A stretch of 64,000 bases of DNA from a virus (IMGVR_UViG_3300011423_000008:7760-71759), one strand, 5' to 3'. Positions 42,736 to 49,943 are shown, counted from the first letter of the stretch. Numbers and translations are program-made. Notes: generated by a model from the letters alone, not told the origin.

Positions 42736-42818
42736 AGCCGTCTATCGGACTCGCACCGATGTTGGGATTTCTCCGTCAGTTTACAAAACTGGTCCTGTCG
42801 CTTCTGAGGCAAGACGGC
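42736..42818 (-). tRNA. trnT: tRNA-Thr(TGT) with long variable arm
   Basis: Loop TT-TGT-AA; G1-C72, C2-G71; V arm GGA-GAAA-TCC. Confidence 0.75.
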
Positions 42819-42826
42819 ATTAAATT

Positions 42827-42899
42827 TGACTCCGTAGGGACTTGCGCCCTCCTGTTTCGTTTAAGAGACGAATCCATCGGCTATCTATGGGTCGGAGCC
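42827..42899 (-). tRNA. trnK: tRNA-Lys(CTT)
   Basis: Cloverleaf; loop CT-CTT-AA. Confidence 0.9.
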
Positions 42900-42965
42900 A
42901 GTGTTTTATGGATGTAAATTTTCTAAATTTTTAATTTCTGAAGTAGTTTTCGCGACTTCCTTCTT

Positions 42966-43196
42966 TTATTTGTTAATTTCCGCCGCGACTTCATAAAGGC
43001 CAACCGCGCCCGCGCCGACAAGACAACCGGTAACAGCTACCGCGCCACTAAATACTCCTAAATACAAAGGCCATATAATTGCACCTAATCCAATAGCAAT
43101 TATTGGCAAATAATGATTTTGAATTTTAGGAAAACCTTTAACAATACCTACAATGATATTAATTAAAGCCGATACTAATAATGCATTTGGGTCCAT
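42966..43196 (-). CDS. phage holin-like protein
   Basis: Three hydrophobic segments; YLPIIAIGLG...GAGAVGLYE. Confidence 0.7.
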   Translation of the reverse strand: MDPNALLVSALINIIVGIVKGFPKIQNHYLPIIAIGLGAIIWPLYLGVFSGAVAVTGCLVGAGAVGLYEVAAEINK

Positions 43197-43213
43197 ATTT
43201 TTATTTTTAAATT

Positions 43214-43288
43214 TGTTCTCGGTGGGATTCGAACCTACATTATCCAGTTATGCGCTATCTCTTTAGGAAAGAGTGCCAATACGAGAAC
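43214..43288 (-). tRNA. trnR: tRNA-Arg(CCT), D-armless with D-loop-like V arm
   Basis: GTTCTCG/CGAGAAC; 7-nt connector; loop TT-CCT-AA; V region with AACTGGATA loop; TTCGAAT. Confidence 0.7.
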
Positions 43289-43411
43289 GATCATTTTTCT
43301 ATTAAAATTCCATTATCAAAATAAAGTTCAGGCACGCCTTTTTCATTAGGCCCTAAAGGACGATTCAGAGCAACACAACCAACAAGTCCAATAAGGCAAG
43401 CCGCCCACAAA

Positions 43412-43918
43412 CTAAATCTTCCAATAAATACAAGACGCAATTTCATTTCTAGTTAAATAAACTATCCGCCCGTTTTGCGGTTCTATAAATCCCATTCTAA
43501 CATCGCCCCCCTCTTTATACAAGAAGAAATTAATAGCGTGCCCTCGATTTGTAGATTCTTGAATATAAAAGAATTCCCCGATAGCTAATTGGTAATCATT
43601 TAATGAGTTTAAATCGCTCGCGACTTCTTGAGCCCCTAATGAAAAGTTATCACAATCAAAAGATTCTAGTTTATATTTTTTATTATAAAACTTTGACGAT
43701 AAATAGTTTACGTAAACAGTTTTGATCCAATGTTTGGTTGGTAAATAGTATGTTTTGTCGGAGATAACCGAACCATTCGAAGGGTGAACCCCCACGGTAA
43801 CATAAATATCTTCTATTTGAATCGTGCCATCCGTTTCGGGCGCGACGTAAGATGTAGAATCAATAGTTTTACAACCAATTACCAAACATAAAAAGAAAGC
43901 AATAATTATTGAGCGCAT
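43412..43918 (-). CDS. lipoprotein with papain/transglutaminase-like catalytic motifs
   Basis: LVIGC lipobox; FDCDNFS and GHAIN. Confidence 0.65.
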   Translation of the reverse strand: MRSIIIAFFLCLVIGCKTIDSTSYVAPETDGTIQIEDIYVTVGVHPSNGSVISDKTYYLPTKHWIKTVYVNYLSSKFYNKKYKLESFDCDNFSLGAQEVASDLNSLNDYQLAIGEFFYIQESTNRGHAINFFLYKEGGDVRMGFIEPQNGRIVYLTRNEIASCIYWKI

Positions 43919-43926
43919 TTGTTATA

Positions 43927-43933
43927 ATTACAC
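43927..43933 (-). promoter_or_regulatory. putative late promoter motif
   Basis: GTGTAAT 8 nt before ATG. Confidence 0.6.
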
Positions 43934-44037
43934 TTAGTTTTCTATAATCATGATTCGATCCTCGCTGGCCCCCGATCTTTTAGGCTCGGGCGCGAGCCAA
44001 AGAAATATAATACCAAACAATAGAATAATAATCAAAA

Positions 44038-44114
44038 TGGTAGCCACGGTAGGATTCCCACCTACATACAATCGTTTCGAAGACGATGACCTTAATAAAT
44101 TAGGTGACGCGGCC
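44038..44114 (-). tRNA. trnR: tRNA-Arg(TCG)
   Basis: Cloverleaf, encoded CCA; loop CT-TCG-AA. Confidence 0.85.
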
Positions 44115-44129
44115 ATAAATTAATAATAC

Positions 44130-44211
44130 TAGGACGAGAGGGAGTCGAACCCTCATTTTCAGCATCCAATTACCGTTCCAAGAGTTAGAAGCTCTGGTGG
44201 GCTACCGTCCC
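44130..44211 (-). tRNA. trnR: tRNA-Arg(TCT), D-armless with D-loop-like V arm
   Basis: GGGACGG/TCGTCCT; connector TAGCCCA; loop CT-TCT-AA; V hairpin CGGT-AATTGGAT-GCTG; GAGGG-TTCGACT-CCCTC. Confidence 0.75.
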
Positions 44212-44341
44212 ATGATTTTTATTTTTAGTTCTAATATTTTATTTAAAACTACCAATAAATAGTAACTTAAAACAGAACAAATCATCAAAAATAAATAACC
44301 AAATACTCCCGTATTGATTAAAATCCAGTTTATTAATTTTT

Positions 44342-44542
44342 TCATTTTTTACTTCTCCATTTATCCAAACAATCTAAATGGCAAAAATGATGGATTCTAT
44401 TTAAAGGTTCTTCGATATACATGTCAGTCACGGTGTCTGAATGACATGGGATATTTTCGCATTTAAGCACTAAACGATAACCGCAAGAATTACACGTTTG
44501 GCTTAAATCAAATCCGCAATTATCGCATTTTACTATTTGCAT
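44342..44542 (-). CDS. Cys-rich hypothetical protein
   Basis: CDNC, CNSC, FCHLDC. Confidence 0.55.
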   Translation of the reverse strand: MQIVKCDNCGFDLSQTCNSCGYRLVLKCENIPCHSDTVTDMYIEEPLNRIHHFCHLDCLDKWRSKK

Positions 44543-44549
44543 ATTAAAT

Positions 44550-44620
44550 TTCCTCCTGTTGGTACTGCCCCAACTCCAAACGCTTCAAAGGCGCGTGAAC
44601 CACTTTTATTCGAAGGAGGC
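44550..44620 (-). tRNA. trnQ: tRNA-Gln(TTG)
   Basis: Loop CT-TTG-AA; 1-72 mismatch. Confidence 0.75.
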
Positions 44621-48778: not shown

Positions 48779-48844
48779 TACAATATAATAATAAAAAAAA
48801 TAGTAAACATACAAAACTATTTTAAAATAACTTTACTATAAAAT

Positions 48845-49000
48845 TGAACATAACGGGAGTTGAACCCGCGCTACGAGCTATAACGCCCGTTAATTAATTT
48901 TAGTTTCATCTAAAAATACTAAGCTTCCAGAGTCTAGAATTGTCGGCTATTCATTAAAGACTATAATTAATTAGAATTGCTACCGCTACAACATACGCTC
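48845..49000 (-). ncRNA. oversized tRNA-like RNA (156 nt) with G3-U70
   Basis: GAGCGTA/TATGTTC + A; D arm with GG; GCGGG-TTCAACT-CCCGT; inserted branched domain. Confidence 0.75.
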
Positions 49001-49008
49001 AAAACAAA

Positions 49009-49105
49009 TGGTCGCACCCCTTTATTAAATTGTGTGGCCACACAGGGTTTAACAACTATATCATTTCGATGATGATTTAACGGCGATCTTTCCGTTAGGG
49101 GTGCT
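49009..49105 (-). ncRNA. CCA-terminated cloverleaf-like RNA lacking a T loop
   Basis: GCACCCCT/AGGGGTGC + GACCA; three internal hairpins. Confidence 0.6.
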
Positions 49106-49106
49106 T

Positions 49107-49421
49107 CTAAAATTGGATTATGTGGGTATCGCGCCCACTCGTCCCGAAGGAATCTGGTTTACAGCCAAACCCGGTTACTTTACCGTCAACTAATCCGAGA
49201 TTTAGACTAAAGGTTAATCTGAATGTCGCACTTGTTGTTTTTTTCTTTCGATTATTTAAAAATACTCTTAAACATTCTTCATCGCAGAACTGAAAATCGA
49301 CTTCTTCGCCCATTTTATTATTAAGGGTCGCTTCAATGGCTTCCGAACCGTTCGGATCGTCGGCGCGTAGGGGAGTTTTGCAATAATCGCAAGTTACCGT
49401 TGTTTTAGCTTTGTCTTCCAT
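49107..49421 (-). CDS. Zn-binding hypothetical protein (3' end overlaps tRNA-Tyr)
   Basis: CDYC...FCDEEC; late motif upstream. Confidence 0.55.
   Translation of the reverse strand: MEDKAKTTVTCDYCKTPLRADDPNGSEAIEATLNNKMGEEVDFQFCDEECLRVFLNNRKKKTTSATFRLTFSLNLGLVDGKVTGFGCKPDSFGTSGRDTHIIQF
49115..49196 (-). tRNA. trnY: tRNA-Tyr(GTA)
   Basis: Loop CT-GTA-AA; V arm TCC-TTCG-GGA. Confidence 0.85.
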
Positions 49422-49438
49422 AATATATTATATAGAAG

Positions 49439-49445
49439 ATTACAC
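49439..49445 (-). promoter_or_regulatory. putative late promoter motif
   Basis: GTGTAAT. Confidence 0.55.
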
Positions 49446-49463
49446 TAATTTTGATAATTAATT

Positions 49464-49534
49464 TGGTTCGTACCGGTTCTGCCCCGATGAGAAAGCCTTA
49501 TCAAGACTCCATTATACTATTTAATTAACGAACC
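49464..49534 (-). tRNA. trnI: tRNA-Ile(GAT)
   Basis: Cloverleaf; loop TT-GAT-AA. Confidence 0.85.
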
Positions 49535-49539
49535 ATTAT

Positions 49540-49625
49540 TAGCGGAGATTGGAGTTTCACCAAACATAGTCCACCTAAGGGCATGGGTTATGAGCCCATC
49601 TAGCGTCATCCGGCTTGTCCCCGCA
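49540..49625 (-). tRNA. trnfM: initiator-type tRNA-fMet(CAT) with long variable arm
   Basis: GGG/CCC anticodon stem, T1-T72 mismatch, loop CT-CAT-AA, about 18-nt V region. Confidence 0.8.
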
Positions 49626-49627
49626 TT

Positions 49628-49700
49628 CCTTGTATATTGGCTTTGCACCAATGATTTCGGCATTTACGTGCCGACAGTTTTACTTTTAAACTAATACAAG
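49628..49700 (-). ncRNA. tRNA-like RNA with 6-nt anticodon loop
   Basis: CTTGTAT/ATACAAG; intact D and T arms; TCGGCA-CGTAAA-TGCCGA. Confidence 0.75.
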
Positions 49701-49705
49701 ATTGA

Positions 49706-49849
49706 TTATTTAATGAATTTAGACCTAAAATCAGAAATAAATTTATTGTCTCTTTCTTTTGCAATGTTTTCAGCCATTTTTTCGATAATTTTATCTAGCT
49801 CTTTTTTAGACTTCCATTGTTTATATATTTTAAGTATTTTAAGAAACAT
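49706..49849 (-). CDS. small hypothetical protein
   Basis: Internal ATG that avoids the tRNA-Asn overlap. Confidence 0.45.
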   Translation of the reverse strand: MFLKILKIYKQWKSKKELDKIIEKMAENIAKERDNKFISDFRSKFIK

Positions 49850-49852
49850 AAT

Positions 49853-49943
49853 CTGGGCAGAATGGGTTCGAACCATTATACGGTATGGAGGCCGGATGCA
49901 CGATATTAACAGTATCGCCACTTACCAATTAGTGTACCGCCCA
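49853..49943 (-). tRNA. trnN: tRNA-Asn(GTT) with long variable arm
   Basis: CGATA-CTGTTAA-TATCG; G73; 23-nt V region; canonical D and T loops. Confidence 0.85.

Follow-up and report, generated by a model that had tools for sequence, protein, structure and literature searches.

In textbooks, a long variable arm is a fixed property of the bacterial leucine, serine, tyrosine and selenocysteine (Sec) transfer RNAs (tRNAs) and the key by which seryl-tRNA synthetase (SerRS) finds its substrates. Contrary to this rule, a 64,000-nucleotide (nt) stretch of viral DNA (IMGVR_UViG_3300011423_000008:7760-71759; hereafter, the window, meaning this whole stretch) encodes, on the minus strand, cognate-looking threonine, asparagine and even initiator tRNAs that bear such an arm under clear selection. 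The joint explanation that we consider best, and to which sequence comparison lends about an even chance, is that the three genes are working phage tRNAs that would decode ACA, AUG (at initiation) and AAC/AAU with the normal amino acids, each of a conserved tRNA design whose variable region has a short built-in hairpin (2-6 base pairs (bp), often with a GAAA-type loop). They would belong to a reserve of decoders with which translation can continue while the host tRNAs are attacked, and the arm, presumably leaving the core next to the 3' strand of the anticodon stem, would present tRNA-cutting immune nucleases with an altered binding surface and so let the phage copy escape cleavage. The parts of this reading differ in strength: the tRNAs are very probably real, selected and cognately charged; for nuclease evasion as the role of the arm, we put the chances somewhat below even.

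The tRNA-Thr(UGU) gene (positions 42736-42818, minus strand) was identified by ARAGORN at the default threshold as an 83-nt, 7/5 cloverleaf with a 3-bp D stem and U73; there is no GG in the D loop, and the T loop is UGCGAGU instead of the UUC type. Its 15-nt variable arm (42761-42775, minus strand), delineated by ARAGORN and Infernal, reads C-GGA-GAAA-UCC-CAAC, that is, a 3-bp stem with a GAAA loop. The Infernal alignment places a 12-nt insert in the variable region, and the minimum-energy fold is a five-arm cloverleaf, so that all three methods bear out an earlier note on this DNA, which had described this gene as a Thr(TGT) tRNA with a 15-nt variable region forming a GGA-GAAA-TCC hairpin. 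Whole-window Rfam runs missed the gene; when the stretch is searched alone, it scores 41 bits with RF00005, and it reaches 91.7 bits with our own model R1. A 73-nt Thr(UGU) tRNA of a related phage (L002) aligns with the window tRNA over the whole body, the only large difference being a 10-nt hairpin insert, and therefore the arm was gained or lost inside an orthologous Thr gene. The same whole-body alignment with the short-arm Thr(UGU) of related phages led us to reject derivation of the arm-bearing gene from a serine tRNA by anticodon change.

A pattern built from the common D arm and anticodon loop of this family has 84 matching stretches in viral contigs and 106 in bacterial genomes. Among the ARAGORN calls at these matches, the variable region is at least 11 nt long in 75 of the 81 viral tRNAs and 14-18 nt long in about half of the 110 bacterial ones. 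The long regions are of two kinds: an unstructured, A/C-rich loop of 11-12 nt, and a hairpin of the form N-stem-loop-stem-CA(C/UC/AC). The stems of the latter are diverse in sequence (GGA/UCC, AGC/GCU, UCC/GGA, GGG/CCC, GAA/UUC, GAGA/UCUC, GGGC/GCCC, AGCUU/AAGCU, AACAUU/AGUGUU). In a ten-sequence seed, which is biased because its members were picked for a predicted hairpin, pairing is complete (100%) at the three arm pairs, and every one of them shows two-sided changes. The covariance model built from this seed was run over 92 viral sources, and 150 matches were aligned, yielding 118 distinct rows that are the best matches to the Thr-built model and include other arm-bearing tRNAs as well. Across these rows, 86.6% of the arm cells are paired and the four Watson-Crick types are all seen at every arm pair; the four classical stems are 98-100% paired, with G1-C72 in 106 and C2-G71 in 95 of the 118.

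The tRNA-Asn(GUU) gene (49853-49943, minus strand; ARAGORN default, Infernal 47.9 bits) encodes a 91-nt tRNA with a canonical GG D loop, T loop UUCGAAC, U1-A72 and G73. Its variable arm (49878-49900, minus strand; ARAGORN and Infernal) spans 23 nt, UGCAUC-CGG-CCUCCAUA-CCG-UAU, with a CGG/CCG stem closing an 8-nt loop. Infernal aligns this region as a 20-nt insert and the minimum-energy fold has five arms, in full agreement with the 23-nt region and CGG/CCG stem noted earlier. The eighth acceptor 'pair' drawn by ARAGORN is U(-1)-G73, which is absent in the CCA-ended orthologue. This orthologue (L049:5326-5418), from the complete 216-kb phage G004, has a nearly identical D arm and nearly identical arm flanks (UGYA.../...GUAU); 17 of the 25 pairs are changed on both sides between the two genes, including two of the three arm pairs, and RNAalifold keeps the arm stem. 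An exact pattern made from the 3' half of the Asn gene had no match in the viral contigs.

The initiator-type tRNA-Met(CAU) gene (49540-49625, minus strand; 86 nt) was called by ARAGORN at an 80% threshold, having been missed by ARAGORN at the default setting and by Rfam, even in a 106-base search. It carries U1xU72, G2-C71, C3-G70, A73, A11:U24 and T loop UGAAACU, in a register that is fixed by the CCA-ended orthologues L046:11059-11147 and L204:3232-3314. According to the family alignment, the variable region (49565-49582, minus strand) is 18 nt long, matching the approximate length given in the earlier note, and consists of a 14-nt hairpin region, GCCC-UUAGGU-GGAC, in which one of the four stem pairs is mismatched, followed by an invariant UAUG. 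A pattern built from the D and anticodon arms of this gene matches 21 viral contigs with 15 distinct copies, 13 of which parse well as 7/5 cloverleaves with a 7-bp acceptor, G2-C71, C3-G70 and, mostly, A73 and an encoded CCA. The 1-72 position is UU in five members, UA in three, AU in four and CU in one. The arms comprise 2-5 bp (CC/GG, GC/GC, GAGA/UCUC, GCAC/GUGC, GCUCC/GGGGC) and are always followed by UAUG. A full 5-bp T stem is present in 10 of the 13 members, and the U49xU65 mismatch that allows an 8/4 reading is found only in the window copy. All family members have A11:U24 (D stem AAGC/GCUA), a uniformity that follows from these bases being fixed in the search pattern. The anticodon stem of the window copy, AUGGG/CCCAU, has three G-C pairs at the bottom, a feature that is partly conserved in the relatives (GCG/CGC, UGG/CCA, AGG/CCU).

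The acceptor stem of Escherichia coli initiator tRNA (fMet) is CGCGGGG/CCCCGCA. Compared with this tRNA (metZWV/metY type), the acceptor of the window Met, UGCGGGG/CUCCGCU, differs mainly at the unpaired 1-72 position, and A73, A11:U24 and the GGG/CCC anticodon stem are common to both; unlike it, the window tRNA has the 18-nt hairpin variable region, A10xA25 in place of G10-C25 and the non-canonical T loop, and is not recognized by the Rfam tRNA model. A 1-72 mismatch and an R11:Y24 pair are recognition elements of the bacterial formyltransferase (PMC9976931). The presence of both, along with the GGG/CCC anticodon stem, supports the assignment of this gene to the initiator type, as originally proposed, and G2-C71, C3-G70 and A73 fit as well. 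One member of the CAU family (L254, minus strand) has a variable region of more than 30 nt with a second, T-loop-like GUUCGCAAA hairpin and yields no normal tRNA parse.

Taken across these families, the conservation and the compensatory changes in the arm stems exclude a chance origin of the three arms. The E. coli identity elements are G1-C72, C2-G71, G35 and U36 for threonine and G34, U35, U36 and G73 for asparagine. Read from the sequence, the window tRNAs have the corresponding cognate marks (Thr: G1-C72, C2-G71, UGU; Asn: U1-A72, G73, GUU). Both have the 7-bp acceptor, 5-bp T stem and 5-bp/7-nt anticodon arm, and lack the 4-5-nt variable loop of class I. With class II, the window tRNAs share the long, stem-containing variable arm but not the anticodon and acceptor marks of leucine, serine or tyrosine tRNAs: the anticodons are UGU, GUU and CAU, and the discriminators (U73, G73, A73) are also those of the short-arm versions of these tRNAs. 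Other arm-bearing relatives similarly keep their cognate marks (Lys A73, Trp G73, Gln U1-G72/G73, Pro C1-G72/A73, Ala G3-U70), and the discriminators are equal in the long-arm and short-arm versions of each anticodon.

These observations bear on the potential mischarging raised in the earlier note, for example with serine at threonine or asparagine codons. In a wider form of this explanation, the arm would recruit SerRS, or else the leucyl- or tyrosyl-tRNA synthetase, so that another amino acid would be inserted at threonine, asparagine or start codons, in the presumed manner of allo-tRNAs or nev-tRNAs. A long arm combined with G73 (as in Asn) or U73 (as in Thr) is the sign of serine identity used by Mukai et al. 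(PMC5389517), and SerRS ignores the anticodon. However, U73 and G73 are equally found in the short-arm Thr and Asn tRNAs of the same phages, where they are normal, and the Met has A73. The arms themselves are short: in the same phage loci, the medians are 15 nt and 3 bp for the arm-bearing class I tRNAs, close to those of Leu/Tyr (14 nt and 3 bp), versus 18 nt and 5 bp for the Ser tRNAs. Furthermore, the acceptor branch is 7/5 rather than 8/4 or 9/3, the cognate acceptor marks are kept everywhere, down to the G3-U70 of arm-bearing Ala, the window Thr(UGU) is orthologous to a short-arm Thr rather than to a Ser tRNA, and a mischarged sole initiator would be hard to tolerate. Mischarging with serine, or with another amino acid, thus appears very unlikely, given the cognate marks, the short arms and the 7/5 branch. 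If the tRNAs are, instead, charged normally, the threonyl-, asparaginyl- and methionyl-tRNA synthetases, the formyltransferase, EF-Tu, IF2 and the ribosome would all tolerate an extra arm, and SerRS would be kept off by something besides the absence of an arm.

A further explanation takes the genes to be decaying pseudogenes, or the insert to be removed from the transcript, leaving an ordinary mature tRNA or none. The failure of the standard detectors on the window Met fits such a view, as does the presence in the same genome of other odd tRNA-like genes, two of which ARAGORN reads as intron-bearing: 2896-3096 (plus strand), a tRNA-Gln(UUG) with a 107-nt insert in the anticodon loop, and 48844-49001 (minus strand), a tRNA-Leu(UAA) with a 62-nt insert at the same place (both with introns allowed). 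Yet the designs are conserved over many contigs with compensatory changes in every stem, the orthologues encode CCA ends, and no bulge-helix-bulge or group I features surround the inserts; moreover, we know of no machinery in bacteria that would excise a 10-20-nt insert from the variable region, which also counts against removal. We regard this explanation as extremely improbable. The lack of bulge-helix-bulge geometry likewise led us to reject archaeal-type spliced inserts, and an archaeal host is rejected by the bacterial marks of the set (Trp G73, Pro C1-G72, and the initiator 1x72 mismatch with A11:U24).

To survey which tRNAs carry arms, we ran ARAGORN at the default threshold on 94 viral loci and obtained 739 distinct tRNAs. 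Long arms are present in 53 of 66 Thr(UGU) and 6 of 18 Thr(CGU), counts that are biased because the loci were chosen for holding a Thr of the arm family, and further in 9 of 27 distinct Asn(GUU), 6 of 25 Lys(UUU), 3 of 8 Lys(CUU), 9 of 15 Ile(UAU) and 5 of 39 Met(CAU). No long arm was found in Ala(UGC) (0/24), Asp(GUC) (0/21), His (0/18), Phe (0/17), Gly(GCC) (0/18), Arg(ACG) (0/15), Arg(UCU) (0/16) or Thr(GGU) (0/20). With Thr excluded, the arms are concentrated on decoders of codons that start with A (35 of 168 versus 14 of 320 others; Fisher p = 3.5e-8, with related sequences counted as independent). The strict rule that only such decoders bear arms is rejected by cases among Trp, Ala, Gln, Pro and Cys tRNAs, and the strong enrichment stays.

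The Ile(UAU) tRNAs of about 92 nt stand out in that their 4-5-bp variable arm has a UAGAU loop motif that is kept in phages and in bacterial arrays alike (L120:6685-6776, L102:2260-2351, L040:17135-17226, L002:12891-12981, L046:11154-11245, L186:1898-1988, L190:685-779, L236:787-880). A sequence-conserved loop of this kind suggests specific recognition of the arm.

The anticodons of the long-arm tRNAs overlap with the published targets of tRNA-cutting defences. Cleavage by the PARIS nuclease AriB, between positions 40 and 41, affects Lys(UUU), Thr(UGU) and Asn(GUU), and Thr(CGU) weakly; escape of phage T5 from PARIS needs the phage's own Lys, Thr and Asn tRNAs (10.1101/2025.02.04.636281). PtuAB cuts tRNA-Tyr in its variable loop, and the T5 tRNA-Tyr escapes via its distinctive variable loop (PMC13096335); a bacterial Schlafen nuclease cuts Lys(UUU) and Met(CAU) (PMC13056530). 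Thus, each of the three window tRNAs has the anticodon of a known target, Thr(UGU) and Asn(GUU) for AriB and Met(CAU) for Schlafen, and the point at which the arm leaves the body, position 44, is three bases away from the AriB cut site. The steric shield against tRNA-cleaving defences that the earlier note suggested gains circumstantial support from this overlap. If the arm indeed blocks immune nucleases, it would be a new, purely structural route of counter-defence.

Several observations weigh against nuclease evasion as the role of the arm. The motif at positions 36-41 that is read by AriB is equal in the long-arm and short-arm versions, and for this reason we reject the idea that the arm substitutes for the AriB-escape substitutions. 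The window Thr already has A39, a change that suffices by itself to make the T5 tRNA-Lys resistant, so that the arm would be redundant with respect to AriB. The window's own Lys(UUU) and Ile(UAU) (39659-39730) have short loops, and arms are found, albeit more rarely, on Trp, Pro, Gln, Cys and Ala tRNAs, none of which is known as a nuclease target. In the enrichment test, each unique sequence counts as an independent case despite the relatedness of many of them, and the loci were picked via the Thr family. Finally, the window Met scores below every standard tRNA detector's threshold, and its minimum-energy structure, when folded alone, is not a cloverleaf.

In a rival explanation, the arm is a structural add-on without any role in defence. 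The variable pocket is the one site that tolerates insertions, and in accessory tRNA sets that evolve fast, a small, stable hairpin would arrive there by drift or would assist the folding of a divergent core (3-bp D stem, altered elbow). Arms come and go among close orthologues: the Thr variable region is 15 nt in the window versus 5 nt in both L002 and G003, and the opposite holds for Lys and Ile(UAU), which are short in the window and armed in relatives. A 3-bp D stem, as is typical of class II, is found in most of the arm-bearing tRNAs, the unstructured A/C-rich Thr loop of 11-12 nt is also common, and the Leu tRNAs of the same arrays are armless, so that arm content is generally labile. 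Pure drift, however, leaves unexplained the compensatory stem changes over the 118 distinct rows, the invariant flanks (UAUG in the Met family) and the anticodon bias (p = 3.5e-8, counted as above), and arms also occur on canonical cores, such as that of the window Asn with its GG D loop and UUCGAAC T loop. Altogether, we consider the add-on explanation to be unlikely, although it is the strongest of the competitors.

Still less probable, in our assessment, is that a dedicated partner of phage or array origin, such as a modification enzyme, a chaperone or a nuclease, uses the arm as a handle to tell own tRNAs from those of the host. The invariant UAUG 3' flank of the Met family, the Ile(UAU) loop motif and the C...CA(U/A)C flanks common to Thr and Lys all could be the marks of such a partner. 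But the Thr and Asn arms vary freely in both stem and loop sequence, and no candidate is found among the products of the open reading frames (ORFs) of the window array, which comprise HNH endonucleases, DUF4326, a lectin-like protein and one with a weak match to 2H phosphoesterases.

Two further departures from standard tRNA structure recur in the same arrays. First, tRNAs with leucine anticodons (UAG, UAA, CAA, CAG, GAG) have only a 5-nt variable loop, with A73 and a 3-bp D stem; examples are 48246-48321 (minus strand) in the window and L007:16816-16889, L047:16313-16637, L049:8789-8954, L050:18414-18490 and L120:6358-7091. Armless Leu tRNAs are common in phages and nearly universal in the arrays of Verrucomicrobiota, where a long arm is present in none of 27 Leu(CAA) and none of 25 Leu(UAA). 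The arm is not needed by the E. coli leucyl-tRNA synthetase (PMC9976931). Second, many tRNAs have G for U at T-loop position 55 (UGCGAGU, UGCAAUU, AGCGUUA), paired with a D loop that lacks GG. Examples in the window are 42736-42818, 45433-45506, 46085-46159, 50764-50840 and 52348-52417, and such tRNAs are also found in the bacterial arrays L054-L159. Of 608 viral tRNAs with U55, 581 have GG; among those with G55, it is absent in 100 of 116 viral tRNAs and 483 of 520 tRNAs of bacterial arrays. Judging by these counts, G55 and the lack of GG together form an alternative elbow, with the two sides of the 18-55 contact covarying. The window Asn has both standard elements (G18 G19 and U54 U55 C56), and the deviation of the window Thr is systematic in these arrays.

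Long accessory tRNA arrays of bacteria were reportedly described by Tran et al. in 2016. The arm-bearing Thr is present in 49 bacterial loci, most of which come from metagenome-assembled genomes of Verrucomicrobiota. These loci are tRNA arrays (median, 8, and maximum, 21 tRNA genes per 8 kb), and they hold the same oddities as the phage arrays, namely arm-bearing Thr, Leu tRNAs with 5-nt loops and T loops with G55; the 92-nt arm-bearing Ile(UAU) was found in 22 of 22 cases. In the Verrucomicrobiae genome G008 (5.1 Mb), about 46 dispersed tRNAs score high and about 20 clustered ones score lower, and hence the array (G008:C2:1088771-1095607) supplements a complete set of housekeeping tRNAs. This array contains an SPFH/Band 7 gene (L241:15608-16864) and is followed by genes for a Fic/DOC protein and the RNA ligase RtcB (L242:623-1840, minus strand, and L242:3749-5179, plus strand). 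We considered the possibility that the array belongs to a prophage and rejected it, for it is not recognizable as one and is flanked by glycoside hydrolases, a deacetylase and transporters, among ordinary chromosomal genes. Such L-arrays are already known, Verrucomicrobia included, and the report on them (PMC8421152) associates them with homing endonucleases and links them, together with RtcB, to survival under translational stress; a term search of that paper returns nothing on class I tRNAs with arms, Leu tRNAs without them or the altered elbow.

The arm-bearing Thr, Asn, Lys, Ile(UAU) and initiator tRNAs, the armless Leu tRNAs and the G55 elbow might all be facets of one 'nuclease-proof' design, a unification that we propose tentatively and hold to be somewhat less likely than nuclease evasion by the arm itself. 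Under this proposal, the design would be common to huge phages and to the accessory arrays of bacteria, where it lies beside RtcB. It would have evolved through remodelling of precisely those surfaces that immune tRNases read, namely the variable pocket, the elbow and the anticodon stem on its 3' side. If this is the case, membership in class I or class II would be a battleground trait rather than one fixed for each amino acid.

The window belongs to a divergent tailed phage, with the large terminase encoded by ORF 36101-37972, and with a weak portal match and an ERCC4 nuclease (gene at 52918-53832) in the region 52918-55863. The source record of the window is 71.7 kb long, but an identical terminase is encoded on a 213-kb contig and its relatives on contigs of 150-220 kb, which indicates a huge phage. 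Several terminase homologues (P0004, P0012, P0034, P0039, P0054) are proteins of about 1040-1065 amino acids with an intein and LAGLIDADG domains. Between the terminase and the ERCC4 nuclease gene lies an array of about 25 tRNA-like genes in 13.5 kb (about 39041-52500, minus strand; ARAGORN and Rfam), alternating with small ORFs. Four of these ORFs encode HNH or NUMOD4 homing endonucleases (37965-38381, 38390-39064, 41306-41875, 48311-48814), and the product of another (45041-45454) has a near-threshold match (26.2 bits; cut-off, 27) to 2H phosphoesterases, a fold that is used in RNA-end repair. The same array is located between the terminase and the nuclease in L001/L040 (76% terminase identity) and L002 (68%), where arm-bearing class I tRNAs are present as well, in part different ones (Ile(UAU), Met(CAU), Lys(UUU), Trp(CCA)). 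More distant terminase relatives (about 55% identity) have no array at this position and so are uninformative. A megablast search of the window array against deposited phages and a scan of viral contigs with the back-translated terminase produced no match.

Additional unusual tRNAs were noticed in these arrays. The tRNA at 49628-49700 (minus strand; 35.9 bits) has an 8-nt anticodon loop, ACGUAAAU, and a short variable loop, and is read by ARAGORN as having the four-base anticodon GUAA. The arrays of related phages include tRNAs with the stop-codon anticodons CUA and UUA (L040:13616-13692; L049, one of each), which are possible suppressors. From the standpoint of annotation, standard tools miss or mislabel genes of the kinds described here, the initiator being invisible to Rfam and to ARAGORN at the default setting.

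A full-text literature search found no description of arm-bearing cognate class I tRNAs in phages or bacteria, and a narrow search on tRNA-Thr in Verrucomicrobia returned nothing relevant. Among known structures, the class II tRNA-Tyr and tRNA-Leu resemble the window tRNAs in the five-arm cloverleaf and the arm of 13-16 nt with a 3-4-bp stem and a tetraloop, and share the 3-bp D stem with the window Thr and Met; in contrast, the window anticodons and acceptor marks are those of Thr, Asn and initiator Met, and many Leu tRNAs of the same arrays are armless. The nematode nev-tRNAs described by Hamashima et al. (2012, 2016) reportedly combine class I anticodons (Gly CCC, Ile UAU) with a body that has a long variable arm, and are said to be eukaryotic, leucine-charged and rarely used in translation. 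The combination of a class I anticodon with a long variable arm is common to the nev-tRNAs and the phage tRNAs, but there is no evolutionary link between the two. Along with the nev-tRNAs, the allo-tRNAs (PMC5389517) are the nearest known counterparts. UAU is a frequent anticodon in both the allo-tRNAs and the set described here; however, the allo-tRNAs are defined by an acceptor branch of 8/4 or 9/3, a D arm like that of Sec tRNA and an identity presumed to be that of serine, whereas the window Thr, Asn and Met have a 7/5 branch, cognate marks and much shorter arms. The allo-tRNAs already break the supposed confinement of long arms in bacteria to Leu, Ser, Tyr and Sec tRNAs, which the earlier note had taken as established.

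In terms of the proposed function, the closest parallel is with the resistant tRNAs of T5 (PMC11464382; 10.1101/2025.02.04.636281), with which the anticodons Thr UGU and Asn GUU are shared; in both cases, the tRNAs are encoded in a phage cluster with homing endonucleases, and the copies differ from the host tRNAs near the cleavage site. The T5 tRNA-Tyr escapes retron-Eco7/Septu PtuAB through its variable loop (PMC11555353; PMC13096335). The T5 Lys, Thr and Asn tRNAs, by contrast, escape by substitutions in a short-loop body, whereas the putatively resistant window tRNAs add a whole hairpin. In terms of genomic context, both the window array and its G008 counterpart resemble the L-arrays of Santamaria-Gomez et al. 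(2021, PMC8421152): at least 20 dense tRNA genes that cover most amino acids, are extra to the housekeeping set and are associated with RtcB and homing endonucleases. In Verrucomicrobiota, such arrays house the Thr and Ile(UAU) designs with arms. Against this background, the new elements are the counterparts of the phage tRNAs in bacterial L-arrays, the covariation counts, an initiator family with formylation marks and the bias of the arms toward particular anticodons.

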